Shown here: piece after piece, positions 2,121 through 55,807 of the stretch
How positions within the stretch are numbered: the first letter of the stretch is position 1
How the letters are laid out: the number at the start of each line of letters is the position of its first letter
NCBI GenBank assembly: GCA_947501605.1
Contig: CANMWZ010000009.1
Span: 52,893-116,892, forward strand
Direction of reading: 5' to 3'
Source of the DNA: Planctomycetota bacterium
Lineage (GTDB): Bacteria; Planctomycetota; UBA1135; UBA2386
Length of the DNA: 64,000 nucleotides
The notes under the pieces: model-generated
What the model saw: the letters and a program-made list of their open reading frames with translations, nothing else
The model's database searches: none
Told to the model about the DNA's origin: nothing
Made by a program: the position numbers and the translations under genes

Positions 2121-4076
2121 ATGCTCCGATTCTCCAGTGCGATCGTTCTGCTCGCGTCCACCGTTGTGGCGCAGGACCATCTGTTCACGTTCGGCTTCGC
2201 CAGCTCCCTCGGCCCGGCCGCTCCGAATCCCGGACTGTCGACCTCGAACGCGGCGCACCCCTCGGGGCGCGTCAAGGACAACAACCTCGACGGTTTCATC
2301 CAAGTCCCGACCGAACTGCACACCTTCCTCTCGACCTGCTACCACACGAGTGGTGGCGCCTGCTTCATGACCGACGTCCGCGCGGTCGTGACCAACGGCG
2401 AGTACGAGTTCTTCTTCACCGACAGCGAACAGGGTCGCGTCATCCGCGGCGTCGATCGCAACCACAACGGTTTGCTCGATCGCGACGAGGACACGAATGG
2501 CAATGGCGTGTTGAACGTCGGCGAGGACACCAACGGCAACCTCGTGCTCGATACCGAAGTCAGCGAGTTCGCCTACTTCGGCGTCGGCACCGGCGTCGGT
2601 GCGATCAAGTTGTTCGCCCCTGACACGCTCGGTGTCTACCGCGACCCGATCAGCAGCCAGACTCGCGTCTACGTCGGTATCGATACGCCATCGAACCTCG
2701 GGTTCGCGCGCGGCATCCACAAGCTCGTCGACGTCAACAACGACGGCGATGCCAAGGACCCAGGGGAGTCCTCACTGTTCGTCAACTCGACGATCCCGCT
2801 GACCACGCCGGGCCTCGGCACGCCGCTGCCAAACTTCTGGCAGCAGGTCCGCATCCTGCCGGGCGGCAAGATCATCGGCTACGCCAGTGGCTTGACCTAC
2901 ACGGCCTTGAGCACGTTGACGAACGAGAACTGCTTCTACGGCTTCACCGACAATGGCGGCGCAACGGCTGCGACGGTTGAGGTCTGGTTCAACTGCTCGA
3001 CGCTCAACTTGCTGCCGCGCCACCCGGACTTCCAGAGCGGCACGTTCCCGGTGATGGACATCGACTACGTGAACGGCGTCACGCCGACGCGGCGCACGTT
3101 CGCGCGTTGGCTCGCAGTCAGTGAGGCTGGTGGTACTGCCGGCGTCGTTCCTGCGTACTACCTCGCGAACAGCTACACCTGGGGCACGACCCAGGCGCCG
3201 CCGTCGTTCGGTGACATCAACGTCAACGGTCAGCACCTCTCGGGCCTCGTCTACCGCGTCAACGACCTCAACAACAACCAGGTCATCGACGCCGGCGAAC
3301 TTGGCCTCTGGGCCAACATGTCGGGTGCCACGGTCGCAGGCATTCCGGCCGCGACCTTCGTGAACGCGCAGAGCAGCGTGGTCATCAACACGTTGAACGA
3401 CCGCACCTGGAGCGTCGATGCGACGCGCGAGGGCGAGTTCAACTTCGTCTACGCCAACGGTGGCGGCGCCGATGCGATGGTGGCGATCCGCGACACCAGC
3501 TTTGACGACGTGATCCAGACCGGCGAAATCAACATGACGTACTACACGTCAGCGCCCGGCGGCGTCTTCCCGCCGCCGATGAACCCGGCGCTCGGTCCGT
3601 TCTTCAGCAGCGGCCACGCGTCGCTGGCGGACGGTACCCTTCCTGGCCCGTTCCTCACCGGCCTCGGCGTCACTGGCGAAGGCTGCATGGTCCCCGGCAC
3701 GGGCTACAACACGCTGATGGATGCGTGGGGCGGCTCGCCGGCGCAGGGCAACGCCGCGTTCAAGATCGGTGCGATCCGCGGCATTCCGTTCTTCCCCGCG
3801 ATCATGACCATCGAAGCGGCGCTGCTGCCAGCTCCGTTCCCGTTGTCGTCGGTTGGCTTCCCGGCCGGCTGTCAGCTCTACACGCCAAACCCGCAGATCT
3901 TCGGCTTCACCTTTGCCGACGCGCGCGGCCGCTCGATCTTTGGCGCGGGCATCCCGGTGAACCCCGGTCTCATTGGCCAGACTGCCATCTTCCAGGGCGC
4001 AGTCCTCGACACGTCGAGCCCCGCGTCACTGCAGTGGCACACGACGAACGCGCTGCTGGTCACGATCCAGCCGTGA
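2121..4076 (+). CDS. Secreted protein with DxNxxG Ca-binding loops (probable beta-propeller) and the shared C-terminal domain
   Basis: Signal peptide MLRFSSAIVLLASTVVA|Q; repeated DxNxDG/DxNxNG loops; C-terminal GEGC...PAGC...Q..VLD...TNAL. The upstream part of the 810-aa ORF looks non-coding. Confidence 0.8.
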   Translation: MLRFSSAIVLLASTVVAQDHLFTFGFASSLGPAAPNPGLSTSNAAHPSGRVKDNNLDGFIQVPTELHTFLSTCYHTSGGACFMTDVRAVVTNGEYEFFFTDSEQGRVIRGVDRNHNGLLDRDEDTNGNGVLNVGEDTNGNLVLDTEVSEFAYFGVGTGVGAIKLFAPDTLGVYRDPISSQTRVYVGIDTPSNLGFARGIHKLVDVNNDGDAKDPGESSLFVNSTIPLTTPGLGTPLPNFWQQVRILPGGKIIGYASGLTYTALSTLTNENCFYGFTDNGGATAATVEVWFNCSTLNLLPRHPDFQSGTFPVMDIDYVNGVTPTRRTFARWLAVSEAGGTAGVVPAYYLANSYTWGTTQAPPSFGDINVNGQHLSGLVYRVNDLNNNQVIDAGELGLWANMSGATVAGIPAATFVNAQSSVVINTLNDRTWSVDATREGEFNFVYANGGGADAMVAIRDTSFDDVIQTGEINMTYYTSAPGGVFPPPMNPALGPFFSSGHASLADGTLPGPFLTGLGVTGEGCMVPGTGYNTLMDAWGGSPAQGNAAFKIGAIRGIPFFPAIMTIEAALLPAPFPLSSVGFPAGCQLYTPNPQIFGFTFADARGRSIFGAGIPVNPGLIGQTAIFQGAVLDTSSPASLQWHTTNALLVTIQP

Positions 4077-4103
4077 TCGGCTAGCGCGCCGCGCCGCGCG
4101 TTC

Positions 4104-5930: not shown

Positions 5931-6022
5931 CGCGAGCTAAGGAAGCGCGCACAGCGCCCGTTGGCCAGCGCCATCTGCCATCTCGCAAGCGATCGTCGTT
6001 CGCGGTAGTTTTTCGTCGGCGG

Positions 6023-7174: not shown

Positions 7175-7281
7175 GCGCGACGTCGCGCCGCCCGGCGTCG
7201 TCGGGTCAGAAACCGCAGGCGCTCACTTCGCCGCACCGGGCGCCGCGGTAACGTGCTCGCCCCCGCACGCGCACCCAACCC

Positions 7282-8019: not shown

Positions 8020-8045
8020 GTCAGCGCGCTGGTGCGCGGCCAGCA

Positions 8046-8119: not shown

Positions 8120-8150
8120 GCCGTCAGCGCCGAACGAGTCGGAGCGCCGC

Positions 8151-8429
8151 CGCGGCCTCAGTTGCGCCGCAGGTTGAGCTTGCTGATGCTGACGCCAGCG
8201 GACTCACGACGTTGAGCACCTTGACCGTGACGATCTGACCGGCCTTCACCACTTCGCGCGGGTCCTCAACGAAGCGATCCGCCAGCTGGCTGATGTGGAC
8301 CAACCCGTCCTGGTGCACACCGACGTCGACGAAGGCGCCGAAGTTCGTCACGTTGGTGACGACGCCTTCGAGCTGCATGCCCGGAGTCAGGTCCTCCACC
8401 TCCTGCCCACCTTCTTGGAAGGTCGCGGT
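8151..8429 (-). pseudogene. Displaced, internally deleted copy of the tex 3' end (S1 domain plus last codons)
   Basis: Near-identical to tex 10307-10785 except for a ~200-bp deletion and a frameshift; no 5' portion. Confidence 0.9.
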
Positions 8430-8700: not shown

Positions 8701-10287
8701 ATGAGGTTGCCGAAGTCGTTGATTGCGCAATTCTGCGCGGCCGGGTCTCTACTGGGGCAACAGCTGCTCTGGGAGGTCCCGGCAGCCGCCTACTCGGGCT
8801 ACAATGCCTGCTCCGCGTTCGGAGATTACAACCTCGATGGCTACAGGGATCTGCTTGCCTATCGGAGTGCCGGCCGGAGCCCGTTGACACAAATCAGCGT
8901 CTGCATCCTATCGGGGCGCGACGGCACCTTGCTTCATCAGCACATTCTCTTCTGGGGGATCGACAACCCTCAATGGGCAGGCGACTTCGACGGCGACGGC
9001 TACGACGAGTACACATGGTCGTCCAGCTTCGTGATTCACATCTACTCGCCTCGGCGGGGGATCGAACTCTTCAATCTTCTCCCGCCCGGACCCGGTGATT
9101 TTGGATTCGCCAAGGAGCCCCGCATCGACCTCGATGGAGACGGACTGAGTGACCTCCTGGCTGCGACGGCGCGCTCCTTCGATTCCAGCTTGTATGCCTA
9201 TGACCACGTCGGTGCGCTCCGCTATGTCATCCCGGCATCGGTCCACGGTTGGGTGATCCAGAGCATCGCCAATGTCGGTGACCGAGACGGGGACGGTGGC
9301 GAGGACTTCCTGGTCGGGGCCGTGGGCGGGGCGCTTGCCGAAGGCGGCGCCTTCCTGTACTCGGGTCGAACTGGCACCCTGCTGCGCTTCCACCCAGGAC
9401 TGCAGGCCTACGACCTGCTGGGTGACGCTGTGGCTCTTGCGGGTGACCTCGATCTGGACGGCGTCTCGGATTACCTCGCGAGCAGTGCTGCGAGCTTTTT
9501 CTCTTTGCGTCAGGTGACGGTCGCCTGGTCCGGGGCCGATGGCTCCGTCATTCGCGTTTGGCAGGACCCGAACTTCCAGCTCGGTTCGCCGGTCAGCGCC
9601 AAGTTCGACGCCGATCTCGATGGCATTCCCGACGTGCTGTTCGCCTGCCCAGGCTGCCAACCCGAACAGTATGTCTGGGGTGTGGTGCAGGTGATCTCGT
9701 CGCGGGACGGGTCGATTCTGCACCACGCGCAGCAGAGCCGATTCCCGTTCCAAGGCAACTACGGCTGGTTTGTTGCAGAACTCGGAGTTCAACCTGGGAG
9801 CCCTCATCCAGTGCATGCACTTACGTTCATGGATGGTGGCCAAGGAGCTGGCACGATCCAAGCCTGGCGCAGCGAACCGCGCCGCTCCAACCTCTCGGGC
9901 GCCGCCTGCACGAACCTAGGCACCGCGATGATCCCCGGCTTCCGGGCCACACCGACCGGCTCCCGACTCCAGATCGCGAACGCACCGCCGGGCGCACTCG
10001 CGTGGTGCATCCTCGGCGACGGCGTCGCCACCACGACGGGTGGCCTGCCTCTGCCCGTCGGCCTTGACGCCCTTGGCTTCCCCGGCTGTTCGCTGCTCGT
10101 GCCGATGGACTTCGTCAGCGCGAAGCCGACCGGCGTGTCTGGCATCGACCGCGGCTATGCCGCCTTCGATCTGCCGGTGCTGCCCGCTACGACCGGCGGC
10201 CGTCGCTTCGCCGTGCAGTGGCTCGTGCTGGATCCGGCGACCGGCCTTGAGGTCTGGACCGCGCGGCGCGACTTCTGGCTGCGGTGA
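8701..10287 (+). CDS. Secreted FG-GAP (integrin-alpha-like) repeat protein with the shared C-terminal domain
   Basis: GGAG RBS; signal peptide ...SLLG|Q; GDxxxDGxxD repeats; C-terminal GAAC...FPGCSL...QWLVLD. Confidence 0.85.
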   Translation: MRLPKSLIAQFCAAGSLLGQQLLWEVPAAAYSGYNACSAFGDYNLDGYRDLLAYRSAGRSPLTQISVCILSGRDGTLLHQHILFWGIDNPQWAGDFDGDGYDEYTWSSSFVIHIYSPRRGIELFNLLPPGPGDFGFAKEPRIDLDGDGLSDLLAATARSFDSSLYAYDHVGALRYVIPASVHGWVIQSIANVGDRDGDGGEDFLVGAVGGALAEGGAFLYSGRTGTLLRFHPGLQAYDLLGDAVALAGDLDLDGVSDYLASSAASFFSLRQVTVAWSGADGSVIRVWQDPNFQLGSPVSAKFDADLDGIPDVLFACPGCQPEQYVWGVVQVISSRDGSILHHAQQSRFPFQGNYGWFVAELGVQPGSPHPVHALTFMDGGQGAGTIQAWRSEPRRSNLSGAACTNLGTAMIPGFRATPTGSRLQIANAPPGALAWCILGDGVATTTGGLPLPVGLDALGFPGCSLLVPMDFVSAKPTGVSGIDRGYAAFDLPVLPATTGGRRFAVQWLVLDPATGLEVWTARRDFWLR

Positions 10288-10314: not shown

Positions 10315-12699
10315 TCAGTTGCGCCGCAGGTTGAGCTTGCTGAGCGCCGCGGCGAGCGGGCTCACGACCTCGGGCTCGGGCTTGCGCGGAGTTGGTGCGG
10401 GCCGCGGGTCGCGGTTGCCGCGCGGATCGCGATTGCCGCCGCCGCTGTAGCCGCCGCTGCTGCGCGCGCCGGCAGACCCTGCGGCCGCGTGGCTGTCGCC
10501 GCGTCCACCAGCCGGCCGTTCGTGCAGCTTCATCGTCAGCGCGATGCGTTGCCGTGGGATGTCGACCTCGAGCACCTTGACCGTGACGATCTGACCGGCC
10601 TTCACCACCTCGCGCGGGTCCTCGACGAAGCGATCCGCCAGCTGGCTGATGTGGACCAATCCGTCCTGGTGCACGCCGATGTCGACGAAGGCGCCGAAGT
10701 TGGTCACGTTCGTCACCACGCCCTCGAGCTGCATGCCCGGAGTCAGGTCCTTCACTTCCTGCACGCCTTCCTGGAAGGTCGCGGTCTTGAACTCCGGACG
10801 CGGGTCGCGCCCCGGCTTCTCGAGCTCCTGCAGGATGTCGGTCACCGTCGGCACGCCGAAGCGTTCGTCGGCGAACTTCTTCGGGTCGAGCGACTTCAAG
10901 AAAGCGCGGTCGCCGATCAGGTCGCGGATCGCGCGGCCGCTCGCTTCGAGGATGCGTTCGACGAGCGGATAGGCCTCGGGGTGCACCGCGCTCTGATCGA
11001 GCGGGTTCTTGCCGCCTTGGATCCGCAGGAAGCCGGCGCACTGTTCGAAGGCCTTCGGCCCGAGGCGGGTCACCTTCAACAGGTCCTTGCGCGACTCGAA
11101 GGCGCCGTGCTCGTTGCGGTGCGCGACGATGTTCTTGGCGAGCGTGCTCGACAGACCGGCGACGCGGGCCAGCAGGTCTTCGCTCGCGGTGTTGAGGTCG
11201 ACGCCGACGCCGTTCACGCAGTCCTCGACGACGCCGTCGAGGGCACGCGCGAGGCGCGTTTGGTTGACGTCGTGTTGGTACTGACCGACGCCGATCGACT
11301 TCGGGTCGATCTTGACCAGTTCGGCGAGCGGGTCCTGCAAGCGGCGAGCGATCGACACGGCGCCGCGCAGCGTCACGTCGAGCTCCGGGAACTCCTGCGC
11401 CGCGCGTTCGCTGGCCGAGTAGACCGACGCGCCGGCTTCGCTGACGACGAGCTTCTGCACCTTGCCGCCGGCGAGCTTCAACAGCTGCGTCACCAGCTTG
11501 TCGGTCTCGCGCGAGGCAGTGCCGTTGCCGATGGCGATCAGTTCGACGGCGTGCTTCTCGCACAGGACCGCGAGGATCTTCAGCGAACCGTCCCAGTCGT
11601 CGCGCGGCGGGTGCGGGTAGATCGTCGTCGTCGCCAGCAGCTTGCCCGTTCGATCGACGACCGCGACCTTGCAGCCGGTGCGGATGCCTGGGTCGAGGCC
11701 GAGGATGGCCTTCGGCCCTGCGGGTGCCGCCAGCAGCAGGTCGCGCATGTTGTTGGCGAACACCGCGATCGCCTCTTCCTCGGCGCGTTCGCGCACGGCG
11801 GTGAACATCTCGCTCTCGAGGTGCAGCGCCAGCTTGACCGACCAGCAGAGGCGCGCCGTGTCCGCGAGCCACGCGTCGGCTTTGCGGTTCTGGTTCTGGA
11901 TGCCGAAGCGACGCATGACCAGGAGCTGGCCTTGGCCGGTCGGATCCTCGGTCGCCGGGGCGTGTTGGTCGCCGAGGCCGAGCCCGAGGTCCAAGAAGCC
12001 CTCCTTGCGCGCGCGGAACATCGCCAGCGCACGGTGACCCGGTACGCGGTCGAGCGGCTCGTCGTGCGTGAAGTAATCGCGGAAGCGCTGCGCCTCCGGA
12101 TCTTGTTCCTTGTCCTTGCGCACGCGGCTCGTCAGGAACGAGTCGTTCTTGAGCCAATGTCGCGCTTCGCCGACGAGCTGCGCGTCTTCGGCGAAGTTCT
12201 CCATCAGGATGTAGCGCGCGCCGTCGAGGGCCGCTTGCGTGTCGGCGACACCGCGCTCGGTCGACACGAAGGTCGCTGCGAGCACTTTCGGATCGTGCGT
12301 CGGATCGGCGAGGAGCTGCTGCGCGAGCGGTTCGAGCCCGGCTTCGCGCGCGATCGTCGCCTTGGTGCGCCGCTTCTGCTTGTAGGGCAGGTAGAGGTCT
12401 TCGAGCTGCTGCTTGGTCTCGGCGCCATTCACCGAGCGCTTCAGCGCCTCTGTCATCTTGCCTTGTTCCTCGATGCTCGCGAGGATCGCGGTGCGGCGCT
12501 CTTCGAGCTCGCGCAGGTAGATCAAGCGTTCGGCGAGCGTGCGCAGTTGCGTGTCGTCGAGGCCGCCGGTCGCTTCCTTGCGGTAGCGGGCGATGAACGG
12601 AACGGTCGAACCCTCGTCGAGCAAGGCAACGGCGGCGGCAACCTGCTGCGGCCGGGCGCTGAGTTCTTGGGCGATGCGATCGGAGATGGACGGAAGCAA
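10315..12699 (-). CDS. tex: Tex family RNA-binding transcriptional accessory protein
   Basis: [42 protein letters not shown], HhH motifs, C-terminal S1 domain; TTG start after GGAGG. Confidence 0.96.
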
Positions 12700-19946: not shown

Positions 19947-21773
19947 TCAGAAGCCGACGGTCCACTGGTTCACGTTCGACGTGATCGCGCCAAGCGGATT
20001 GACCGGAGCGACCAGCGCAACCTGGCTGCGGAGCTGCACGCCGGCAATGAACACGTCCATCGGCACCGGCACGGACAGCGAACCCGTCGGCGAGCCCGGC
20101 AGGGTCGCGAGCGGGAACTCGCTGAGGAAGTCCGTGTACAGGAAGCAACCTGGAGCCATTCCTGGGCCAGCGAGCGAATCGACGGTGATCGCCAGCGTCT
20201 GGCTGCCGATGATGAACGTCGCGAGGCCGATGTTGCTCGGCGGCGCACCGGCGAAGTTCATCGTCAGGGTCTGCCCAAGTGCCGCGCCGACACCGACGAC
20301 CACGTGGGTGAGCGGCGTGCCGCCACCGGTCACGCGGACCGGGCCGACGATGTTGGCGACGCCAGCGGTTGCCAGATCGCTATTCGCCTGGTTGGTTGCC
20401 GGCGCCTGCGGGGCGATGCCGACGACCGGCGGGCTCGCGGTGACGACGCCCGTCAGTGTGCCGTAGGACAACGTGATGTTGCCGCTCGCGAGGGTCATCT
20501 CGATCTGGAACGTCTGGCTGCCAGCGCCCTGGAAGAGCGGCACGTTCTGCCACGTCGCCATGAAGCGCGTCGCGGTGTTTTCGACGTAGATCGGAGCCGT
20601 CGAGTTGTTCGGCACGAGGTCCTTCCAGTAGCCCGAGATGCGCGGCAACACCGAGGTATGGAACGTCGGCACCGACGCATTGACCTGCTGGAGTGCGGAG
20701 TTGCCGAGCCAGATGTAGCCGTTGCTGCTCAGGGTGATCTGCGAGATCGCCTGGTTGCCAAACTGGAAGGTGCTCGCGAGGGTGAAGTTGTGCAGCGTGT
20801 CGTCTGAGGCGCTCGGCAGAATGGCGCCGGACGTCGCATAGTTGGCATCGAGGCCAGGGCCCTGTGCCGTCGTGTAGCTGTCCGCCGTGCGGGCGAACAG
20901 GACACTGCTGTTGGCGAGGTCGATGGGCCGCGCGCCAGCCGTCGCCGTGAATGCCTCGTAGAGGGAGACGTTTGGCTCCGGGCAGCCAGTGCCCGAGGCG
21001 ACCGGGGCTACGGCCATCGGGAAGATGGTGCCGCAGACAGGCAATGGGTTGCCGTTCGGCGTGTAGTTGATCGGCGGCGTCGTGTTGGGCGGCGCGTTCG
21101 GGACGAGATTGACGATGCGACCGACCATGTCGAACGGCGAAACACCGACATTGCTCGTGAACACCTCGTAGGCCGTCGAATCGAGGGCGCTCGCGGGCAG
21201 CGTCGGCGACCAGTTGACGGGGCTGGCCGGCGCGGTCGTGCCGCGGCTAAAGCCGACGATGTTGGTCACGTTCGGGATGTTGTGGGTGCCGGCGTAGTAC
21301 AGATGGATGCCGCCGGTCGAGGTCAGCACGCATTCCATGTTGGCGAAGATCGTGCTGCTGCCAAAGCGCGGGATGCCCTTCCAGATGATGTTGCATTGCG
21401 TCAGCGTCGTGTTGAAGAACACGCCGCCACCTGGAGGAATCACGGCGAAGTTGTCGGTGTCCCAATCACACCAATCGACGGCGATGCGAGCCGGGCGGGT
21501 GCGCAACTCGGCTTCCGTGGCCGAGAAGTCCGCGGGATCCACGACAGGAGCCGCGCCAAGCCAGATGAACCCGTTGGAACAAATGGTGATGAGGTTGGTC
21601 GAGCCGCCGTTGAACGGGAACGAGAACGGCAGCGCGACGGTGCGTACCGCATCGTCGGCGATCGGAAAGCCTGCGCCGGACGGTACGTTGGCGAACTGGA
21701 AGCACTGCGAGGTGGCGTCCTTGGCAAAAGCCAGTGCTGCCGCGGCAGTGACGAGGAACGAGATCTTCTTCAT
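19947..21773 (-). CDS. Secreted protein with two NIDO-like repeats and the shared C-terminal domain
   Basis: Signal peptide MKKISFLVTAAAALAFAKDATS|Q; duplicated DD...F.F.F.......SNG[FY]IWLG...RI...W.D; APGCFLY...SQ...TSN. Confidence 0.82.
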   Translation of the reverse strand: MKKISFLVTAAAALAFAKDATSQCFQFANVPSGAGFPIADDAVRTVALPFSFPFNGGSTNLITICSNGFIWLGAAPVVDPADFSATEAELRTRPARIAVDWCDWDTDNFAVIPPGGGVFFNTTLTQCNIIWKGIPRFGSSTIFANMECVLTSTGGIHLYYAGTHNIPNVTNIVGFSRGTTAPASPVNWSPTLPASALDSTAYEVFTSNVGVSPFDMVGRIVNLVPNAPPNTTPPINYTPNGNPLPVCGTIFPMAVAPVASGTGCPEPNVSLYEAFTATAGARPIDLANSSVLFARTADSYTTAQGPGLDANYATSGAILPSASDDTLHNFTLASTFQFGNQAISQITLSSNGYIWLGNSALQQVNASVPTFHTSVLPRISGYWKDLVPNNSTAPIYVENTATRFMATWQNVPLFQGAGSQTFQIEMTLASGNITLSYGTLTGVVTASPPVVGIAPQAPATNQANSDLATAGVANIVGPVRVTGGGTPLTHVVVGVGAALGQTLTMNFAGAPPSNIGLATFIIGSQTLAITVDSLAGPGMAPGCFLYTDFLSEFPLATLPGSPTGSLSVPVPMDVFIAGVQLRSQVALVAPVNPLGAITSNVNQWTVGF

Positions 21774-23475: not shown

Positions 23476-23630
23476 GGTTGGAGGGCGAGCAGGATACGAC
23501 CGCAGGAACCGCAGTAAAGGGCGGCGGCACAGCGGCGGGCGAGAACCGGAGCGGTAGGGGCCGCCAGTCTTCGCCGAGGCCTCATGCCGAGTTGCTCTGG
23601 GCCTCGTACGCAGCGATTCGAATGACCGTC

Positions 23631-24701
23631 ATGCGCACGATCCTCACTGCTTGTCTGGGCCTGCTCGCCATGCCGATGTCGACCTGCGACCTCGCGGCGC
23701 AGGCAAACGTCGCGGTCCTGCCCGCCGCTGCCGACACCACGCTCTACGAGGATGCTGCCGGCGCGTTCGCCAATGGCGCCGGGGAGGGGTTCTTCGTCGG
23801 GCTCATCGCCAGCGGGCTGAAGCGCCGCTCGCTGGTGCGGTTCGATCCCGCGGCTGCGATCCCCGCTGGGGCTCGCATCGTCTCGGTCGAACTCGTGGTG
23901 CAGGTCTCGCGCGGCTTCGCGCAGAACCTGGTTCCCGTCGCACTGCATCGCGTGACTTCGTCGTGGGCCGAGGGACCTTCCGATGCGACCCTGTTCCGCG
24001 AAGGTCAGGGCATTCTCGCGGTCGCCGGCGACAACACCTGGCTGCACCGGAGCTTTGCCACCTCGTTTTGGAATGCGCCCGGCGGCGACTATGACCCGGT
24101 TGCGAGCGGCGTGGGCTTCACGCCTCCGCTCGGTCGCGTGACGTTTGCCTCGACCAATGCGATGACGACCGACGTGCAGCAATGGCTCGATGCACCGGCG
24201 ACCAACTTCGGCTGGCTCCTGCGCACCGACGAGTTGGTGCCGCAGGAAGCTCGCCGCTTCGAAAGCCGGACGACCAGCGTCGTCGGCACCAGCCCTGCCT
24301 TGATCGTCCGCTGGCTCGCGGCGGGCACGGCCACCAGTTTCGGCGTCGGTTGCGGCGCGCCGGTGCCCTCCCTCGCGGTGGCGGGCTCGTTCCAGGTCGG
24401 GGGCACGTTCACGTGCGTCGTCCAAGGCAACCCGTTCGCGGTCTCGATCCTGCTCTACGAACTGTCGTTGCAGCAGCCCGCACCCGAAGTCTTCCCTGGG
24501 TGCGCCTTCTACCTGCCGGTCTCCGCGGTATCGCCTGGGCTGCAGTTCCTCGATGGCGCCGGCCAGGCGAACACCAGCTTCGCCGTGCCGTCGTCGCCGG
24601 TCTTCGCCGGGCTCCCGCTCGCATTCCAGGCGGTCGTGTTCGATGCTTCTCAGCCGTTTGGAGTCGGGTTCACCAACGCGCTGTTGCTGGTGCTGCTGTG
24701 A
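23631..24701 (+). CDS. Secreted DNRLRE-like domain protein with the shared C-terminal domain
   Basis: Signal peptide ...LAA|Q; ADTTLYE, RSLVRFD, W.EG, W..PGGDY, VQQWLD...NFGW; C-terminal GVGC...FPGC...FQ..VFD...TNAL (alternative start 23622). Confidence 0.8.
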   Translation: MRTILTACLGLLAMPMSTCDLAAQANVAVLPAAADTTLYEDAAGAFANGAGEGFFVGLIASGLKRRSLVRFDPAAAIPAGARIVSVELVVQVSRGFAQNLVPVALHRVTSSWAEGPSDATLFREGQGILAVAGDNTWLHRSFATSFWNAPGGDYDPVASGVGFTPPLGRVTFASTNAMTTDVQQWLDAPATNFGWLLRTDELVPQEARRFESRTTSVVGTSPALIVRWLAAGTATSFGVGCGAPVPSLAVAGSFQVGGTFTCVVQGNPFAVSILLYELSLQQPAPEVFPGCAFYLPVSAVSPGLQFLDGAGQANTSFAVPSSPVFAGLPLAFQAVVFDASQPFGVGFTNALLLVLL

Positions 24702-24814: not shown

Positions 24815-27172
24815 ATGGAACTCCGCGCCCGCTGGTTGTCCCTTCTTGTCCTCTTCGCTCTGTTGCCGGCCGCGCTTTCGGCCCAGGGTTCGGTCAAGCT
24901 CAGCGCTGCCTTCGAGCCCGCGAGCGCCAAGCCAGGGGACTCGGTGACGCTGAAGCTCACCGTCGAAGTGTCGCCCGGTTACCACGCCTACGGCACCAAG
25001 GAACCGACCAACGTCCCGGTGTCGATCGACCCGTCGACGTGGCAGCTGGTGGGGCTCGAACTCGACGGCGCCGCCAAGATCCCGCCCGGCAACAAGGCCA
25101 CCGCGTTCGGCCTCGACACCTACCCGTTGCCCGAGGTCTTCGTGGTGACGCAGGCGCTGAAGGTCAAGCAGGACGCGGCGGGAGAGATCGCCGCCAGCGC
25201 CACGTTCGGGTTCCAACTGTGCGACGAGAACGCCTGCGAGATGCCGAGCAGCGAGCCGTTCACGGCAAAACTGACGATCGCTGGCAGCGCCCCCTCCACG
25301 GCTGGCAACGCAGTCTCCGTGCCCAGTGCAGGGGCGGCCCAGGACCCAAAGCCGAAGCCCGCGGCGAAGCAAAAGCGCTTCCGCTCCAAGGACGGGCGCA
25401 TCACGATGACAGTGGCCTGCACCCCGCAGCCAGCGCGCCCGGGCGAGTCGGTCACGCTCACGATCGAGGCCGAGGTCGAAGAGGGTTTTCACGCCTACGG
25501 CACCAAGGAGCCGACCAACCTGCCGGTCAAACTCGATGCGGCGAAGTGGCAGCTTCAAGGGATCGAGACCGATGGCGCGGCGGTGATCCCCCCGGGTGAG
25601 GAGGCTGAGGCCTTCGGCATCAAGACCTATCCGCTGCCGCACGAGTTTCGCGTCACCCAGAAGCTGCGGGTGAAGGCTGACCAGGCGGCGGGGACGGCGA
25701 CGATCGAGGGCGAGTTTGGCTATCAGGTTTGCGACGAGAATGGCTGCGAGATGCCCCAGGTCGTCCCGTTTGCGATCGACCTGCCGATCGAAGCTGGCAC
25801 CGCGCGTGCCGCGGCCCCGGCCGCGGCGCCGGTAGACGAGGACTCCGAGGACGGTTCGCTGTGGGCGCTCCTGCTCGCGTGCATCGGCGGCGGCCTGTTC
25901 GCCCTGGTCATGCCATGCACCTACCCGATGATCCCGATCACGTTCAGCTTCTTCACCAAACAGGCCGACGCGCGCGGCGGCAAGGTGATGTCGCTGGCGC
26001 TGGCCTATGGCTTTGGCATCGTCGCGATGTTTGCGGCGATCGGCGCGCTGGCCTCGGCCCTGGGGGGCTACATCGTTCCGTTCGCCGCACACTGGGTCAC
26101 CAACGCGGTGATCGGCACGGCCTTCGTGGTGTTCGGCCTGTCGCTGCTCGGCGTGATCACACTGCAGCCGCCGCGCTTCCTGACCGACGCCGCGGGTAAG
26201 TCGCGCACGGTCGGCGGGCTCGTCGGCGTGTTGCTGATGGGGGCGACGCTGGTGATCAGTTCGTTCACGTGCACGGCGCCGGTGGTGGCGCTGTTGTTGG
26301 TGCCAGCGGTGCAGTCGGGCGAGGGCTTCCGGCCGATGCTCGGCATGGCCACGTTCGGCGCGACGATGGCGCTGCCGTTCGTGTTGCTGGCGCTGCTGCC
26401 AGGCCGGGTGAAGAAACTGCCGCGCTCGGGCGAATGGATGAACACCCTGAAGGTCTCGCTCGGCGTCGTCGAACTCGCCGCGGCATTGAAGTTCTTCAGC
26501 AACGCAGAGTACGTGCAGGACCTGCACGTGCTGCCGCGCGAGGTCTTCTTCGGGATCTGGATCGCTCTGTTCCTGGCCCTCGCCGTCTATCTGTGGGGCC
26601 TCGTGCCGCGCACGAAGGTCGGCAACGGTCGTCGCGTCGGTGGCTTGGCCAGCGCGTGGTTCGCGGCCTACTGCCTGTATGGCGCGCTTGGCTATCCGCT
26701 CGACTTCGTGATGAACGCGTTGGCGCCGGCCTACGGGGCGCGCGACATCTCGCGCCACGAACTCGTGGTCGACGACTACGAGAAGGCTCGCGCGTTGGCG
26801 CTCACGCAAGGCAAGCTCCTCTTGGTCAACATCACGGGATTCACCTGCGCCAACTGCCGCATGGTCGAGCGCGGGATCCTGCCGGCCTTGGCGATCGCTC
26901 CGATCCTCGAGCAACACTTCGTCGAAGCGCGCCTGCACATGGACAACGAGTCCGTGATCGAACCGACTCGATGGGCGCGACAGGTGAAGCTGCGCGACGA
27001 ACTGGTGCAAGGCCGCGTCACGACGCCGATCTACTGCAGCGTCGACCCGAAGACCGGCAACCTGATCGTCGCGCACGTGCTCAAGGGCGGACCCGGTGCG
27101 TGGGAGCAGGGCTACCTCGCGTTCTTGACCCAGTCGCTCGCGGCCTCGGGTCGGTCCATGGCGACGAAGTGA
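24815..27172 (+). CDS. dsbD: DsbD-family thiol:disulfide interchange protein with a duplicated N-terminal domain
   Basis: Two Ig-like N-domains ending CDEN[AG]CEMP; TM domain with MPCTYPMIPIT and FTCTAP; thioredoxin domain TCANC. Confidence 0.88.
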   Translation: MELRARWLSLLVLFALLPAALSAQGSVKLSAAFEPASAKPGDSVTLKLTVEVSPGYHAYGTKEPTNVPVSIDPSTWQLVGLELDGAAKIPPGNKATAFGLDTYPLPEVFVVTQALKVKQDAAGEIAASATFGFQLCDENACEMPSSEPFTAKLTIAGSAPSTAGNAVSVPSAGAAQDPKPKPAAKQKRFRSKDGRITMTVACTPQPARPGESVTLTIEAEVEEGFHAYGTKEPTNLPVKLDAAKWQLQGIETDGAAVIPPGEEAEAFGIKTYPLPHEFRVTQKLRVKADQAAGTATIEGEFGYQVCDENGCEMPQVVPFAIDLPIEAGTARAAAPAAAPVDEDSEDGSLWALLLACIGGGLFALVMPCTYPMIPITFSFFTKQADARGGKVMSLALAYGFGIVAMFAAIGALASALGGYIVPFAAHWVTNAVIGTAFVVFGLSLLGVITLQPPRFLTDAAGKSRTVGGLVGVLLMGATLVISSFTCTAPVVALLLVPAVQSGEGFRPMLGMATFGATMALPFVLLALLPGRVKKLPRSGEWMNTLKVSLGVVELAAALKFFSNAEYVQDLHVLPREVFFGIWIALFLALAVYLWGLVPRTKVGNGRRVGGLASAWFAAYCLYGALGYPLDFVMNALAPAYGARDISRHELVVDDYEKARALALTQGKLLLVNITGFTCANCRMVERGILPALAIAPILEQHFVEARLHMDNESVIEPTRWARQVKLRDELVQGRVTTPIYCSVDPKTGNLIVAHVLKGGPGAWEQGYLAFLTQSLAASGRSMATK

Positions 27173-27307
27173 CGCGAGCCGGCGAGGCGAATGCCGTGCG
27201 CGTCCGAATGCTGCGGACGCGACGTATCGATCCTGTACCTGCGCCGGCGATTCGCGGCTTTTGTCGGCAAGCCACCTAAGTTCTTCCTCCCTGCTGTTCC
27301 ACCGCCC

Positions 27308-29146: not shown

Positions 29147-29226
29147 GAACGGGCGGCGGTCCCTGCCGCTACCTGCCGTCGCCTTCCATCCCGGCGTTTC
29201 CCCGCGGCAGGCGTCTTCTCCGCAGG

Positions 29227-30977: not shown

Positions 30978-30981
<4 letters not shown>
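29227..30981 (-). CDS. DUF2891-like domain fused to a TlpA-like thioredoxin
   Basis: FDGSYDWHS...HW and HWL..F motifs (DUF2891-like); C-terminal DFWATWCGPC; GTG start overlaps the kinase stop. Confidence 0.8.
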
Positions 30982-34888
<3,907 letters not shown>

Positions 34889-34892
<4 letters not shown>

Positions 34893-35512
34893 GGGCCCTT
34901 GGCCTCGTGCCACGAGCCCTGGCCCAGCGCTGACTGCACTCTGGCTCGCAGCATCGACGCACCAGCCAGCAGCCGCCGGTAGGCCGTCGAGTCGGCGAGG
35001 GAGAGCAGCTTTGCCGCCATGGGCACCGACATCTCTTCGAACAGGCACATCCTCACCAGATCGCGATACTCATCCGACAGCGAATCGATCGCCTCGCGCA
35101 GCACGCGTGCGCGTTCGTGGCGGCCGGCCTCGCGGCTCGGAGTCGTCGTGACCGGAGGGAGGATTCCGTCCTCGGATCTTCTCGAATCTCCGGAAATCGA
35201 ATCGATCTTGTGGCCGCCGCCCCGCTTCTGCGCGGAGAGGCGTTCGACCGTGTCCTTGATGCGGTTCTGGGCGATGCCGCGGAGCCAGGCTCGGAACGCC
35301 GGCATGCCGCGCCAGTCGTGGGCCGCACGATCGCGCCAAGCCATCGCCAGGGTGTCCTGCCACAGGTCCTCGGGCGCGATCTGCGAACTCAGCGGGCGGC
35401 CCATCCAGCTGCCGATCAACGCGATCATCGCATCTTGGTCCAAGGCGGCGATCAGTTCGGTCCAGAGCGCGGCGTTCCGGTGCGGTTGGTCGTTCGGCGG
35501 GAGCGCGGTCAT
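34889..35512 (-). CDS. ECF sigma-70 factor (kinase-associated type)
   Basis: EDLWQDT, FRAWLRGIAQN, AQKR, TTPS, and region 4 LSDEYRDLV...HTH. Confidence 0.88.
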
Positions 35513-35850: not shown

Positions 35851-37941
35851 ATGCTCATGCACCGCATCTCCGCTTCTCTCGCCGTGAGCCTCGCGCTCCT
35901 CGGTTCGTCCACTGGCCTCCTCTGCCAGACGCAAGTGATCCCCGCGGCCTACACTGCGGCCGAAGCTGCCAGTAGCGCCTCGGCGCCCTGGAACACGCTG
36001 GCCGTACCGACGCGAGTCCAATACTGCTACGACTCGAGCTACTTTACGGCCGCGGGCATCACTGGGCCGGTGGTGCTCACCGGCATGCGGTTCCGCGCCA
36101 ACGCCGCCGCCGTGACCTCGACGTGGACGGGCGGAGTGTTCTCGAACGCGCAGATCGACCTGTCGACCTGCGGCACCAACTTCGCGGCCATCACGCCAAC
36201 GTTCGATCTGAACCACGGCAGTGATCGCACGAATGTCTTGGCGGGCACCGTCACGGTGCAGCCGGGCGCTGGCGCTGGCGCTGGCCTGCCGGGCGCGTGG
36301 TACATCACGATCCTGTTCGATGCGCCGTTCGTCTACGACCCGACGTTGGGCGATCTGCTGACCGAGTACCGCGTCAGCGGTTGGTCGGGCACCTCCAGTT
36401 TCTCGTGCGATCACGACTTCGCTGCGGCAACGGTTCAGGGCTCGCGTCTGCTGAGCAACGTCAGCACCACCAATGCCACGGGCACGGTCGCGCAAGGCCA
36501 CGCACCCGTGGTCGAGTTCACGTATGCCGCAGTCGCGGGGTTGTTCCCGAGCTTCACGGCGACGCCGATCCGTGGGGCCTCGCCCCTTCTGGTGCAGTTC
36601 ACCGACCGCTCGGTCACGTCGTCAGTGTTTGGCGTGTTGTCGTGGCAGTGGGACTTCGACAACAACGGCACAGTCGACTCGACGGCACAGAACCCGACCT
36701 TCAGCTACGGCTGTGGCACGCACTCGGTTCGGCTGACGGTCAGTGACGGCATCAACCCCGCCGGCAGTCTGTTGCGCGCGGGGCTCGTGGTCACTGACGA
36801 GATCGTGCCGGGCTTCACGTTTGTCGTGACCGCACCGGGCATCGTCCAGTTCACCGACACGACGACACCGCCAGCGACGTCCTGGGCCTGGGATTTCGAC
36901 AGCAACGCGAGCGTCGACTCGACGGTGCAAAACCCGGCCTTCAACTACGGCAGCTCGGGCCTGATCCCGTTGGCGACGTTGACGGCAAGTCGACTGTGCG
37001 GTCCGTCGACCGCCGTGAGCAAGCCGGTCTATACGAGCTTGTCGCTGGACATCCCGGGCATCGCCAATGTCGGGTCGCTGGCGTCGCCACCGTTCGGTGC
37101 GGGCTATTGGTTCAACATGACCGTGACCGAGCCGTCCGGGATCACGTTGAAGGGGTTGGTGGTTTCTGCCGGCGGCAACACGACCGGAACTCTGAACCTC
37201 TACGCCTCGAACCTGGGTTGGAGCGGCCGCACCGGCAGCTCGGCGGGTTGGCACCTGAACCAGACGGGCGCGGCGACCAAGGTCGGCAGCTTCTTCTATT
37301 CGATGTTCACGCAACCCAAGCACTACGGACCGGGCACCTATGGGATGTACATCCACCTCCTGGGCGGCATCCCGACATCGGGCACGATTGTCGCCGGCTA
37401 CGGCAACGCGGACTTCACGGTCAATCCAGGCGCGGTGCAGGTGGGCGGAACGCCGTTCGCGGGCGGCGCGCTGGCGACGCGCATGCACACGGGCGCCTTC
37501 CTCTACACCAAGGGTAGCTTCGACGGTGTCGCCAGCAACGGCTGGACCGGCAGCGGCTGCCCGGGCTCGCTGGGAGTGAGCGCCGCGACGCCAGTGGGCA
37601 ACCCGATCGTTGGGCAGAGTTACTCGATCGACTTCAGCAACTGCCCGGCCAACGTGGGTTTGGTCGCGTGGGGTCTGAGTCGCACGACCTCGGGTCTCGG
37701 CGCCTTGCCGGTCGACCTGACGGGCTTGGGTTACACCGGCTGCAATCTGCGCGTGAGCACCGACATCGACATCCAGGTCGCATTCACGGGCTCGACGACT
37801 CTGACGTGGGGCGTGGCGATCCCGAACGATCCGTTCTTCATCGGCATCGCGTTCTACAACCAGGTGCTGATGTTCGAGCCGGGCTTCAATGCCGGCGGCG
37901 GCGTCTTGTCGGACGCGACGAGTTCGCTGATGGGCAACTGA
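35851..37941 (+). CDS. Secreted PKD-domain protein with the shared C-terminal domain
   Basis: Signal peptide ...LLC|Q; two PKD domains (VQFTD...SW.WDFD.NGTVDST.QNP); GSGC...YTGCNL...NQ...SDA (alternative starts 35830/35857). Confidence 0.85.
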   Translation: MLMHRISASLAVSLALLGSSTGLLCQTQVIPAAYTAAEAASSASAPWNTLAVPTRVQYCYDSSYFTAAGITGPVVLTGMRFRANAAAVTSTWTGGVFSNAQIDLSTCGTNFAAITPTFDLNHGSDRTNVLAGTVTVQPGAGAGAGLPGAWYITILFDAPFVYDPTLGDLLTEYRVSGWSGTSSFSCDHDFAAATVQGSRLLSNVSTTNATGTVAQGHAPVVEFTYAAVAGLFPSFTATPIRGASPLLVQFTDRSVTSSVFGVLSWQWDFDNNGTVDSTAQNPTFSYGCGTHSVRLTVSDGINPAGSLLRAGLVVTDEIVPGFTFVVTAPGIVQFTDTTTPPATSWAWDFDSNASVDSTVQNPAFNYGSSGLIPLATLTASRLCGPSTAVSKPVYTSLSLDIPGIANVGSLASPPFGAGYWFNMTVTEPSGITLKGLVVSAGGNTTGTLNLYASNLGWSGRTGSSAGWHLNQTGAATKVGSFFYSMFTQPKHYGPGTYGMYIHLLGGIPTSGTIVAGYGNADFTVNPGAVQVGGTPFAGGALATRMHTGAFLYTKGSFDGVASNGWTGSGCPGSLGVSAATPVGNPIVGQSYSIDFSNCPANVGLVAWGLSRTTSGLGALPVDLTGLGYTGCNLRVSTDIDIQVAFTGSTTLTWGVAIPNDPFFIGIAFYNQVLMFEPGFNAGGGVLSDATSSLMGN

Positions 37942-38362: not shown

Positions 38363-39412
38363 ATGAACCTCCTCGCACCGTCCGTCCTGCCTCTCTTGCT
38401 CGCGGCCTCGTCGCTGTCGGCACAGGGTTCCTTCCTGACCTCCCCGTCGTCGCTGGCGTCGTCCGACGGCAACCAGTCGCTCGCCTTCAGCGAAGGCACC
38501 GGCACTCGCTGGCAGCAGATCCACGGGGACCTGATCGGTCCGGCGCGGCTGCTGCTCGGCCTGCGCTTGCGCCGCGACGAGGTGGTGCCGGCCCTGCCGA
38601 CGGCGACCTCGCGCCAGATCACGGTCGAAGTGCTGGCCGGCGAAGGCGACTTGGCACTGGTGGGCGGTGACTTCGCGCAGAACTTCCTGATCCCCGCGCA
38701 GCAGGTGGTGCCGCCGACGTCGATCACGCTGCCCGATTGGTCGCTGCCCGCCGGCGGGCCGCTGCCGTTCGACCTGGACGTTCCGTTCGCGGTGCCGTTC
38801 GCCTACTCGGGTGCACTGGCGCTCGTCGTCGAGGTCCGCATCGTCAACGACTCGCTCGTGTCGCACTTCGTCGACTCGTACGCAGAGGCAGGGAACTCGG
38901 TCGCGCCGGTCGACCTCGGCACGGGCTGCAACACCGGGTTCTTGCCGTTCCGCCAGGACGCGTCGCTGACGACGGTCTGGGTGCCGACGCAGCGCGGGGA
39001 ACTGGTGTGGGACCTGCGCGCGCTGTTCGCGCCCGTGGGGCTGCCCGGCTTCTTCCTCGTCGGCACGCAGAACCCGGTCACGGTGCCGGGTCTGTGCGAG
39101 ACCGTGTTCCCGACGCTGGACCTCGTGCTGCCGGCGACGCAGTTCGCCAGTGGCCCGATCGGGATCAACACGGTTCCGCAGGCCACGACGCCCTTCAGCC
39201 CGGGTCTCGTCGGCATGCAGGTGACGGTGCAGTCGGCTGCGATCGACCCGTCGCAGCCCGTGTTGCCGTTCGTGCTGTCGCAGGCACAGGTGCTGACCGT
39301 GGCGCCGCTGCCCCCGCAGCCGCTGCCGATCGTGTCGCTGCGCGGCAGCCTCGCCAACGCGCTCGCGGACGAGGTGGTCTACGGGGGCAGGGTGCTGCAG
39401 TTCGAGTTCTGA
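38363..39412 (+). CDS. Secreted protein with a variant of the shared C-terminal domain
   Basis: Signal peptide ...LSA|Q; N-domain similar to that of 35851-37941; GTGC...PGLC...VQSAAID...SQA. Confidence 0.78.
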   Translation: MNLLAPSVLPLLLAASSLSAQGSFLTSPSSLASSDGNQSLAFSEGTGTRWQQIHGDLIGPARLLLGLRLRRDEVVPALPTATSRQITVEVLAGEGDLALVGGDFAQNFLIPAQQVVPPTSITLPDWSLPAGGPLPFDLDVPFAVPFAYSGALALVVEVRIVNDSLVSHFVDSYAEAGNSVAPVDLGTGCNTGFLPFRQDASLTTVWVPTQRGELVWDLRALFAPVGLPGFFLVGTQNPVTVPGLCETVFPTLDLVLPATQFASGPIGINTVPQATTPFSPGLVGMQVTVQSAAIDPSQPVLPFVLSQAQVLTVAPLPPQPLPIVSLRGSLANALADEVVYGGRVLQFEF

Positions 39413-48058: not shown

Positions 48059-48067
48059 CGGACCGCT

Positions 48068-54170: not shown

Positions 54171-54193
54171 CGCCACGACCGAGCGCGGCGTCG

Positions 54194-55807
54194 TCACAGC
54201 GGGCGGCTGCGCATTGCATTGGAGGCTGACAACCCTTGTGGGTTCGAGGCGTCGAAGAACCAGTACTGCAGATAGAGGCTGACGCCGAGCGGGAGCTGCG
54301 GCCAGAGCAAGCTGACGTCGATGGCGCCGTGCGCGTCGATGGCCAGAGCCAGACCGCCACCGTCGGGCGCGAACGCATCGGGGACGATCTGGCCGCCTCC
54401 GAACGGCAGGTTGATCGCGCTGGATCCGAAGAGCAAGAAGCCGACGTCGAGCGGTTTGCCGTTGCGCAACGAAATCGTGGTCTTGGTTCCGGCCGCGCCG
54501 CTGCCCTTGCCATCGAGGACCGCGAAGCCCGGGGCGCCACGGAGTCCGCGACCGAGCATCTGCCACAGCGGCTCTGAGGGCGCGTTGACGAGATACCGGA
54601 TCATGGAGGGCAGCGCACTGGCAACGGCGACGTCGATGTCGCCATCGCCATCGCCATCCTTGGCGATCACGCGGTTGCTGTTCGGACCGCTGAGCAACTG
54701 CTGCTCAGTGCCAAACGTGCCGTTGCCGAGTCCGGGGAGGATGGCGAGATAGCCCGGGTTGCCGCCATCGCCGACCATTCCGCCCAAGAGGTCCAGATTG
54801 CCGTCGCGGTCGAGGTCGGCCAGCGTCAGATCGGTTCCGTGCGAAGGCGAGGGCAATGCCTGGCTGCCGAGGGGAGCCTGACCGACATCGCGGAAGCGAC
54901 CTTGGCCGAGGTTGCGAACGAACGAGTAGCTGTGGCCGACGACGTTGAGTGCGACCAGGTCCACGAGTCCATCGTTGTCGACGTCGCCTGCTGCGATCTC
55001 GATCGGCGCTGCGGCGGTGCCCCCCAGAGTCTCATGGCTCATGCTGCCGCCGAGGCCTGTGCCGTCGTTGCGGAGCACGGACACGTCGTTGTCGAGTCGA
55101 TTGCACACCGCAACGTCAAGGTCGGCGTCGCCGTCGAAATCCGCGATCGCGATGGACTCTGCAGTTGCCCGGTTGGTAGCGACGTTGACGCTTGACGCGA
55201 GCGTGATGCTGCCATGCACCGGCGTGATGTTGCGGGCGATGCAAATGAAGCCGGGCTGTTGGACGACGTTCAGTTGACTGGCGACGACGATCACGTCGGC
55301 GCGCCCGTCGCCGTCGAGGTCCGCGATTGCCAGATCGTCGGGAGTGATGGGGGATCCTGCGACGGCAGTGCCGATCACGACGTGATCGACTGGTGTCGCA
55401 AAGCTGCCGTCGCCGCGATTCCGCAAGACGGTCAGCACCGCATCGAAGTTTGGATGAGCGTCGGCGCGCACCGCCACCAGGTCGGGCGAGCCGTCGCCGT
55501 CGAGGTCGCCTGACGTGATCGCGCGGATGTCCGAGAGGGCCAGTGCGGCCAACGGGTAGCGGACCGCCGTTGCGTGAATGCCGTTGCCGAGACTCAAGGA
55601 CACTGAGACGGAGATCGTGTCACTGACAGCGAAATCGACGAAGCCGTCGCCGTTCCAGTCGTCGGCTGCGAACTCCGTTGCCGTCGTCGTCAACGGCGCG
55701 ATGCTGCGCAGGTGCAGCGGTGCTTGCGCTGCCACCGCCGTAGTCAGGCACCAAGAGGCGGCGCCGAGGAAGAGAGCTGTCAGCAGGCAGTTCGGCAGAA
55801 GCGGCAT
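54194..55807 (-). CDS. Secreted FG-GAP/VCBS repeat protein with a Cys-less variant of the shared C-terminal domain
   Basis: Signal peptide ...AAA|Q; seven DxDGDG..D repeats; C-terminal LYLQYWFFD...SASNAM. Confidence 0.85.
   Translation of the reverse strand: MPLLPNCLLTALFLGAASWCLTTAVAAQAPLHLRSIAPLTTTATEFAADDWNGDGFVDFAVSDTISVSVSLSLGNGIHATAVRYPLAALALSDIRAITSGDLDGDGSPDLVAVRADAHPNFDAVLTVLRNRGDGSFATPVDHVVIGTAVAGSPITPDDLAIADLDGDGRADVIVVASQLNVVQQPGFICIARNITPVHGSITLASSVNVATNRATAESIAIADFDGDADLDVAVCNRLDNDVSVLRNDGTGLGGSMSHETLGGTAAAPIEIAAGDVDNDGLVDLVALNVVGHSYSFVRNLGQGRFRDVGQAPLGSQALPSPSHGTDLTLADLDRDGNLDLLGGMVGDGGNPGYLAILPGLGNGTFGTEQQLLSGPNSNRVIAKDGDGDGDIDVAVASALPSMIRYLVNAPSEPLWQMLGRGLRGAPGFAVLDGKGSGAAGTKTTISLRNGKPLDVGFLLFGSSAINLPFGGGQIVPDAFAPDGGGLALAIDAHGAIDVSLLWPQLPLGVSLYLQYWFFDASNPQGLSASNAMRSRPL

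Follow-up and report, generated by a model that had tools for sequence, protein, structure and literature searches.

A 64,000-nucleotide stretch of a Planctomycetota genome (contig CANMWZ010000009.1, positions 52,893 to 116,892; hereafter the window) encodes seven signal-peptide proteins with different cargo that share a domain of about 125 amino acids, referred to here as the module, at or near the C-terminus. The module represents a real and uncatalogued domain family, which behaves like known terminal tags and is a member of none of those tested. The presence of signal peptides, the equivalence of its position to that of other tags on homologous cargo, the shared composition of its carriers and the lack of a matching known family support its role as a shared, lineage-specific address or attachment module on exported proteins, as had been proposed from the window alone. 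The further proposal of a new sorting system holds as far as the shared address is concerned but is unproven as a system, because no dedicated machinery has been identified.

The reading to which we give slightly better than even chances is that the module serves as a retained, non-covalent docking handle at the outer cell surface, carried by more than 100 signal-peptide proteins. It is argued from the combination of a shared tag, export, slot equivalence, a single compositional class of cargo, the existence of inserted and N-terminal copies, and the hydrophobic character of a module of presumably low binding specificity.

The module as a domain family

All seven open reading frames (ORFs) were found in the window, each with a signal-peptide-like start and the motifs reported in the original prediction, and their alignable segments form one family, in which segments 2–7 share 25–30% identity with the first. 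Run against the six-frame ORFs of the genome, a hidden Markov model (HMM) built from the seven segments identified 51 domains at an independent E-value (iE) below 1e-4, 49 of them no more than 10 amino acids from the stop codon; iteration raised the number to 99, and a search with the --max option gave 107 domains at iE<1e-3 as against 0 in reversed ORFs. Reversed-sequence controls gave no match at iE<0.1 and, in the last refinement round, none at iE<1. The genome-refined HMM, under which the window copies reach iE values of 1.5e-25 to 1.2e-9 and thus align significantly, detected 133 carriers (iE<0.01) among the 3,585 genes predicted by an in-house caller based on codon usage. This number is a minimum, because some further carriers are too divergent for the model and fall below the threshold. 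The expectation of hundreds of copies per genome, extrapolated from the density of the window, was too high, as the genome averages about 1.9 copies per 64 kb and the window is approximately 3.7 times denser. Nevertheless, the module tags about 4% of the genome's genes and yet has no Pfam or NCBIfam model.

The seven-sequence model matches 20 of 21 relatives, among which counts climb to 119–136 matches under capped scoring, while neither this nor a better model found the module in one genome of the same order (G015; 2.9 Mb, 91% complete). With a model of 46 sequences, the module was detected in 63 of the 301 sampled genomes of the phylum, distributed in blocks of whole families; one Eisenbacteria genome, the only survey point outside Planctomycetota, had none. 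A divergent subtype with weak full-length similarity to the module (hhalign probability, P, 37%; E 4e-4) was observed in P0189, P0206, P0214, L059, L067 and L103, so that, in some families, few matches may mean this subtype rather than absence. A profile search of public data returned 21,289 clusters at 50% identity, and the match is C-terminal in approximately 147 of the best 150, as read from the table (P0078 being internal, P0106 N-terminal and P0147 terminal). The ESM Atlas yielded unnamed Planctomycetota clusters, and a search for related loci with the module alone gave none. Contigs from RNA runs span the region, and neither transcription nor a ranking of genes is derivable from them.

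No Pfam or NCBIfam family matched more than one of 46 members at E<=1; hence, the module corresponds to no characterised domain, such as a carbohydrate-binding module (CBM), in these libraries. No description of the domain was found in the literature, chiefly open papers, supplements aside. The available passages of 10.1101/817700 do not mention secretion, C-terminal or S-layer, and its supplements could bear on novelty. AlphaFold2 modelling of a single copy (37543-37935 of gene 35851..37941) yielded a confident all-beta immunoglobulin (Ig)-like sandwich (predicted local distance difference test score, pLDDT, 95.9). Comparison of the model with known structures (Foldseek, VIA), which had been suggested with a view to the C-terminal domains (CTDs) of the type IX secretion system (T9SS) and to Ig folds, returned generic Ig, FnIII and macroglobulin-type sandwiches (best Z 8.7, root mean square deviation (rmsd) 2.9, 102 residues aligned); the rows shown do not exclude matches to a T9SS CTD, a cohesin or BslA, although no such entry is among them.

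The conserved positions comprise Gly/Pro turns, two Cys, a near-invariant Pro and Gln, and a Ser-Asn pair preceding the last strand. The two Cys, which had been thought to form a disulfide, are both present in 49 of 84 C-terminal copies and both absent from 13, while 18 copies contain only the second and 4 only the first (Fisher p=4e-4); moreover, they are the third-ranked pair by mutual information with average product correction. Co-occurrence and covariation support the disulfide and do not prove it. The GxGC motif is not universal, because the copy at 19947 lacks the first Cys and keeps only the second. The grand average of hydropathy is 0.49 for the module as against 0.05 for the cargo, and 94 of 130 modules contain no Lys. 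Paralogous modules share a median identity of 29%. Across two orthologue series, divergence is mostly faster in the module than in the cargo (e.g. cargo 69% vs module 51%, or 58% vs 41%), although some of the closest pairs depart from this pattern.

A hydrophobic, lysine-free domain could also self-assemble into a mixed coat or fibre resembling hydrophobins or S-layers, with cargo-free modules as the bulk subunit, which we hold to be distinctly unlikely. Short proteins that appear to be cargo-free (C40:7044, C41:437, C45:6157 and C64:11057) would fit this explanation, as would weak sequence matches, at E 0.08 to 9i0y, a DUF3992 protein, and at E 0.23 to a capsid decoration protein. However, the PDB sequence search gave matches only at E 0.08-0.23, which is chance level, the cargo-free candidates match the module weakly (hhalign P 42% and 2%), and a paralogue identity of 29% is low for one lattice. 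Prediction of a two-copy complex (score 0.28, mark 0.42) gave no answer and is evidence neither way. The short proteins themselves (C41:437-994, C45:6157-6714, C64:11057-11608 and C40:7044-7535) have signal peptides and lengths of 164–186 amino acids and resemble cargo-free divergent modules; three of the four are Cys-rich paralogues.

Position, cargo and export of the carriers

The module is C-terminal (<=15 amino acids from the stop) in 120 of the 133 carriers. Eight proteins, including that encoded at 38363-39412 in the window, have a tail of 30–45 amino acids, and in five the module is N-terminal, directly following the signal peptide (three FGE-sulfatase-like and two Kelch proteins). The C-terminal position originally described therefore applies to most carriers but not to 13 of the 133, which are N-terminal or tailed.

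What had been regarded as a short tail behind the window copy at 38918 belongs to the cargo domain, as seen from profile–profile alignment and structural modelling. The 349-residue protein of gene 38363..39412 (+) contains the module at 38909-39304 (iE 1.2e-9) within a jelly-roll-like cargo, whose last strands are encoded by 39305-39409. Its split domain belongs to the same family as the uninterrupted N-terminal domain of approximately 200 amino acids that precedes PKD domains and a module (37543-37935, iE 1.5e-25) in gene 35851..37941 (+). With the latter and four paralogues as the reference, the part preceding the module in the 38363 family covers columns 2-155 of the uninterrupted domain (P 98.3). 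The tail matches columns 172-200 with a score of 25.8 and an E-value of 5.8e-5, and none of 60 column shuffles scored above 13.0. Single tails reached no more than 6.1 bits against the HMM, which is not significant beside the 6.4 bits of shuffled sequences, and the evidence for the insertion consists of the profile–profile test and the AlphaFold model of the 38363-39412 protein (pLDDT 92.9). In this model, jelly-roll/PHR/CBM-like matches extend across residues 1-329 (138-152 aligned), whereas Ig-type matches cover about residues 156-297 and include the CCS domain 2/Cu-Zn SOD fold (Z 7.7, rmsd 3.4, 122 aligned, residues 158-293). The architecture is conserved in 25 homologues. As modelled, the module of this family is a loop insertion in the cargo jelly-roll, and the tail provides the cargo's last strands; excision would part the cargo from these strands, which argues that at least the inserted copies are retained and restricts the mechanism to one in which the module stays on the protein. 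The notion of a strictly C-terminal, cleavable signal in the style of T9SS CTDs thus finds no support, since 13 of the 133 copies are off-terminus, the cargo fold needs the tail for its completion, and neither SprA nor PorV was found.

Homologues of the cargo reveal which tags may replace the module. Among the 120 listed of 157 homologues of the DNRLRE cargo (gene 23622), 27 carry the module, 23 a PEP-CTERM-like tag, 13 an IPTL-like tag, 10 a T9SS/FlgD domain, 9 a dockerin-like tag (one of them PEP-like as well), 16 one of three smaller recurrent tags, and 22 none or another; the module and a second tag never occur together. Except for those labelled by Pfam, these classes are defined by regular expressions. 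The cargo of gene 63087 was found at 77 homologous loci, which end in the module (17), a dockerin-like pair (39, by regular expression) or other sequences (12), or are cut (9). The dockerin-like homologues are mostly titled Phycisphaerales/Phycisphaerae or unplaced Planctomycetota, while two from Eisenbacteria have, by inspection, FlgD-like tails. On both cargos, therefore, the module sits where other lineages place sorting or docking tags. Further recurrent C-terminal tags, namely a YLVVP..EGSYG-type domain, a TWGxIK-type tail and a DGFES-type tail, were noticed on other DNRLRE homologues (P0167, P0177, P0196, P0197 and P0201; P0190, P0205, P0217, P0244, P0245 and others); they have no precomputed Pfam label and are candidate sorting tags.

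The co-occurrence of module and signal peptide, suggested earlier as a check, was found in 114 of 120 scorable carriers under a permissive rule, after exclusion of 7 carriers cut by contig ends and 6 shorter than 150 amino acids. A small residue followed by Gln at the likely cleavage site characterizes 105 of the 120, as compared with 527 of 2,896 other genes, while a lipobox is present in 2 of 78 carriers vs 114 of 663 others. No hydrophobic segment above the transmembrane (TM) threshold follows the signal peptide in 127 of the 133 carriers, and a beta-strand with no cluster of basic residues forms the C-terminal end, in agreement with the earlier view that the module is neither PEP-CTERM nor LPXTG. 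Gln at position +1 was considered as a module-specific feature and rejected, because many module-free exported proteins share it. Signal peptides ending just before Gln are frequent genome-wide (e.g. in the window genes 24815, 29230-30981, 40600 and 63087), also in module-free proteins, and resemble the Q-rule of Bacteroidetes; the accessible part of PMC5837995 describes the Gln rule as specific to that group. The glutaminyl cyclase family PF05096 was not found in the genome, and the M28-type enzyme was not searched.

The cargo itself is diverse. The 120 carriers form 71 cargo clusters, the largest with 34 members, and the cargos in 68 longer database matches, chosen from 150, include Kelch, FG-GAP, BNR, RCC1 and other propellers, subtilases, PKD, C-type lectin and beta-helix domains. 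Its composition is distinctive: Lys, Arg and Glu together constitute less than 10% in 102 of 111 cargos as opposed to 26 of 341 module-free exported proteins, and Thr, Ser and Asn amount to 9.2, 7.7 and 5.2%, compared with 5.6, 5.3 and 2.4% in the comparison proteins. The same Thr/Ser/Asn excess has been reported for PEP-CTERM and LPXTG proteins (PMC1569441 section 5), and by analogy the shared low charge suggests that the carriers have one destination. Low-charge proteins without the module comprise a set of large lipobox proteins, several with Big_5, and about 12 other exported proteins.

Proposed mechanism and candidate partners

The docking reading can be described as four steps. Carriers would be exported by Sec via a type I signal peptide, which is seen in the genes and whose cleavage would mostly leave an N-terminal Gln. 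Folding in the periplasm, the predicted second step, may include formation of a disulfide; the DsbD- and thioredoxin-like genes of the window are not linked to it. Passage across the outer membrane would most likely employ one of six secretin channels, no T9SS having been found. Finally, the hydrophobic, almost lysine-free surface of the module may hold the protein on a low-specificity target of the envelope, for which an outer-membrane lipid or glycolipid, or an abundant surface component, seems likelier than one lock-and-key receptor. The module of signal-peptidase-I substrates would then be the counterpart of the lipid anchor on module-free large Ig-repeat lipoproteins of similar composition.

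Several observations weigh against this proposal. The signal-peptide rule is crude and was also passed by 1,552 of the 2,896 other genes; about a dozen exported low-charge non-lipoproteins contain no detectable module, which indicates that it is not obligatory for that class; and some carriers resemble, by homology, enzymes compatible with the periplasm (sulfatase, cytochrome c peroxidase-like). We infer the location at the surface, as opposed to the periplasm, from composition and analogy alone. The fold matches are generic, with Z at the level of common arrangements and identities <=15%, and allow no functional inference, while the hydrophobic residues of the module may be buried under its N-terminal arm and a long loop. 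No ligand or dedicated partner was found among the candidates profiled across genomes.

The partner search was performed by phylogenetic profiling over the 301 genomes, as the original prediction had recommended, and revealed a co-occurring secretin and a co-occurring Big_5 family, neither of them module-specific; these presence counts are confounded by kinship, as relatives are not independent. The secretin, one of six encoded in the genome, belongs to a cluster with the order secretin-TPR-X-ExbB-ExbD-ExbD-secretin (G000:C10:73797-85646, L118), which all 8 loci retrieved from other families, including two module-negative ones, retain fully or partly. Judged from its gene content, the cluster looks like an undescribed secretin system coupled to the proton-motive force, and a literature search found no paper on it.

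Such a machine could give the module another role, that of an export address: its folded surface would be read by an outer-membrane apparatus (type II-like or the ExbB/ExbD double secretin) independently of position and without cleavage, retention being secondary or absent. This explanation is much less probable than surface docking. In its favour, the module stands where homologues of the same cargo have T9SS/FlgD CTDs or PEP-CTERM and marks nearly all low-charge signal-peptidase-I proteins, and the genome has six secretins and the conserved double-secretin cluster, whose secretin is present in 62 of 63 module-positive genomes. However, the same secretin is also found in 156 of 238 module-negative genomes (218 of 301 overall) and was hence rejected as a dedicated partner; it is missing from whole families (f13, 0/16; f11, 0/3). 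The rapid divergence of the module and the 29% identity of paralogues leave no obvious recognition patch, an argument tempered by the poor conservation of T9SS CTDs noted in the accessible part of PMC11285876. Both functions might be combined if the proton-motive-force double-secretin machine read a position-independent, uncleaved Ig-like address and the module, carried by more than a hundred proteins per genome, then held the cargo on the outer membrane. This would be an undescribed surface-display system of non-Planctomycetia planctomycetes, a functional analogue of the T9SS assembled from unrelated parts, and we regard it as improbable. Protein X of the cluster was likewise rejected as a partner for lack of specificity (23/36 vs 4/24, and 22/26 further module-positive genomes).

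The Big_5 lipoprotein family, for which three candidates were scored per genome, occurs in 53 of 63 module-positive and 55 of 238 module-negative genomes (108 of 301 in total), and its presence in the latter led to its rejection as a dedicated partner. If these large Ig-repeat lipoproteins acted as a cohesin-like scaffold, the module would be a dockerin-like handle for one protein receptor, an explanation that overlaps with docking and differs from it in specificity only. Its appeal lies in the replacement of dockerin-like pairs by the module on homologous cargo within the phylum, in a genome without a PF00404 match, and in the distribution of the Big_5 family; nonetheless, we consider it quite improbable, as the family extends to module-negative genomes and escaped detection in 10 module-positive ones, and a tiled repeat scan of signal-peptide proteins of at least 350 amino acids turned up no long scaffold built from identical repeats of an unknown domain (the cohesin family itself was not searched). 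A second large lipoprotein was rejected, being present in 12/60 genomes and in module-negative G015, and a heuristic list of beta-barrels contained no expanded family and none clearly linked to module genes. Large lipoprotein-like proteins of low charge that contain Big_5 Ig domains are encoded at G000:C20:9217-14594, C1:177210-188411, C2:21881-24859 and C33:37576-40509; the family of the first two has a long glycine-rich region, and all four proteins are possible surface scaffold or S-layer-like components.

The remaining carriers of the window have varied cargo. The 651-residue signal-peptide protein of gene 2121..4076 (+) combines a Ca-loop-rich cargo of no library family with a module at 3669-4070 (iE 1.8e-20). 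Two FG-GAP repeat proteins, of 528 residues (8701..10287, +) and 537 residues (54194..55807, -), carry a divergent module at 9892-10275 (iE 4.7e-14) and a module devoid of both Cys at 54203-54562 (iE 4e-18), respectively. Gene 19947..21773 (-) encodes a signal-peptide protein of 608 residues with an internally duplicated beta-rich cargo and the module lacking the first Cys at 19953-20354 (iE 2.6e-20), and gene 23622..24701 (+) a DNRLRE-domain protein of 359 residues with the module at 24333-24695 (iE 3.6e-22). Among the earlier cargo labels, both FG-GAP assignments and PKD (Pfam) and DNRLRE (NCBIfam) were recovered, while the Ca-loop propeller had only a sub-threshold EF-hand match and the NIDO-like label no library match. 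A probable eighth carrier, gene 63087..64000 (+), has lost its C-terminus at the contig end; its three closest orthologues (L041-L043) are 82-83% identical and all end in the module.

Several genes near the carriers stood out. Gene 55921-58119 (-) encodes a 733-residue low-charge exported protein without a Pfam match, whose C-terminal beta-domain was tested as a module and rejected (P 0.32); its paralogues at other loci of the genome include one with the module (C55:9111). At 30981-35512 (-), an ECF sigma-like gene is followed by the gene of a 1,290-residue Ser/Thr kinase that has TPR and, at its C-terminus, FG-GAP repeats; the latter are homologous to the cargo of the FG-GAP proteins that bear the module. 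A DsbD-like protein and two AhpC/TSA thioredoxin-fold proteins (24815-30981) adjoin the DNRLRE carrier and could serve disulfide handling in exported proteins. The carrier at 8701-10287 is flanked by a short S1-domain ORF (8127-8399) and a Tex-like gene (10318-12624, -), as if it had been inserted into or beside a split or duplicated tex 3' end. Outside the window, a 2,627-residue alpha-2-macroglobulin/TPR protein (G000:C58:2640-10520) adjoins an inserted-module gene.

Comparison with known systems

The closest structural matches of the module are macroglobulin (complement C3 MG), FnIII and other Ig-like domains, with a generic arrangement and identity not exceeding 15%. Since such a fold is shared by many accessory domains, and the conserved Gln, Asp, Ser and Asn could bind sugar, the module might be a shuffled Ig or carbohydrate-binding domain that targets an external substrate (algal polysaccharide, particles) rather than the cell. 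We consider this very improbable: there is essentially one module per protein, terminal in 125 of the 133 carriers; the cargos are propellers, peptidases and sulfatases, not glycoside hydrolases; and the module has low Trp (1.1%) and Tyr (1.7%), no match to a CBM in Pfam, and a pattern of mutual exclusion with sorting tags.

PEP-CTERM/exosortase and LPXTG/sortase systems share with the module a many-to-one terminal tag on signal-peptide proteins, a Thr/Ser/Asn-rich cargo poor in basic residues and the same slot, whereas the module is a folded domain of 125 amino acids and lacks the motif-TM-basic tail. The genome has one PEP-CTERM protein, separate from the carriers, and one exosortase. The dockerin-like tags of Phycisphaerae and other planctomycetes, which are paired Ca-loops (PF00404-like), stand in this slot on members of the same cargo families, tag diverse exported cargo and are likewise retained, which for the module is argued from its insertion in a cargo fold. 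In contrast to dockerins, the module is all-beta and has no duplicated Ca-binding loops; PF00404 matched neither the genome nor any module member, while its control was matched.

T9SS type A CTDs (PF18962) and FlgD_ig (PF13860) resemble the module, for which an Ig-like sandwich is predicted, as C-terminal Ig-like domains on many unrelated Sec substrates; such domains occur on DNRLRE cargo homologues, and Gln is at +1 of the mature protein in both cases. A cleaved signal of this type, processed by a sortase-like peptidase, would account for the Ig-like fold, the 120 C-terminal copies and the Gln +1 as in Bacteroidota, but is barely credible. The module is longer (about 125 amino acids vs 67-108 for CTDs in the accessible part of PMC11285876), lacks the conserved terminal Lys, is also found in N-terminal and inserted positions, shows no profile similarity to seven T9SS CTDs (hhalign P 0.35) or FlgD (P 2.75), and gave 0 of 46 matches to PF18962 and the NCBIfam T9SS models at E<=1. 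PorV was absent from the genome, with its positive control matched. SprA_N was absent from the genome and four module-rich genomes (one a single-contig genome) and was found in the FlgD-tag genome G319. Searches with TIGR04189, PorP/SprF, PorU (C25) and PF18962 gave 0 matches in the genome, with positive controls equally silent. According to the same part of PMC11285876, T9SS CTDs tolerate short C-terminal extensions and some are uncleaved, so that tails alone would not exclude the T9SS; it is excluded by the absence of homology and machinery.

The HMM of the module predicts a coherent, probably surface-bound set of proteins in largely uncultured planctomycetes and offers a defined handle on how diderm members of this group export and hold proteins without a T9SS.

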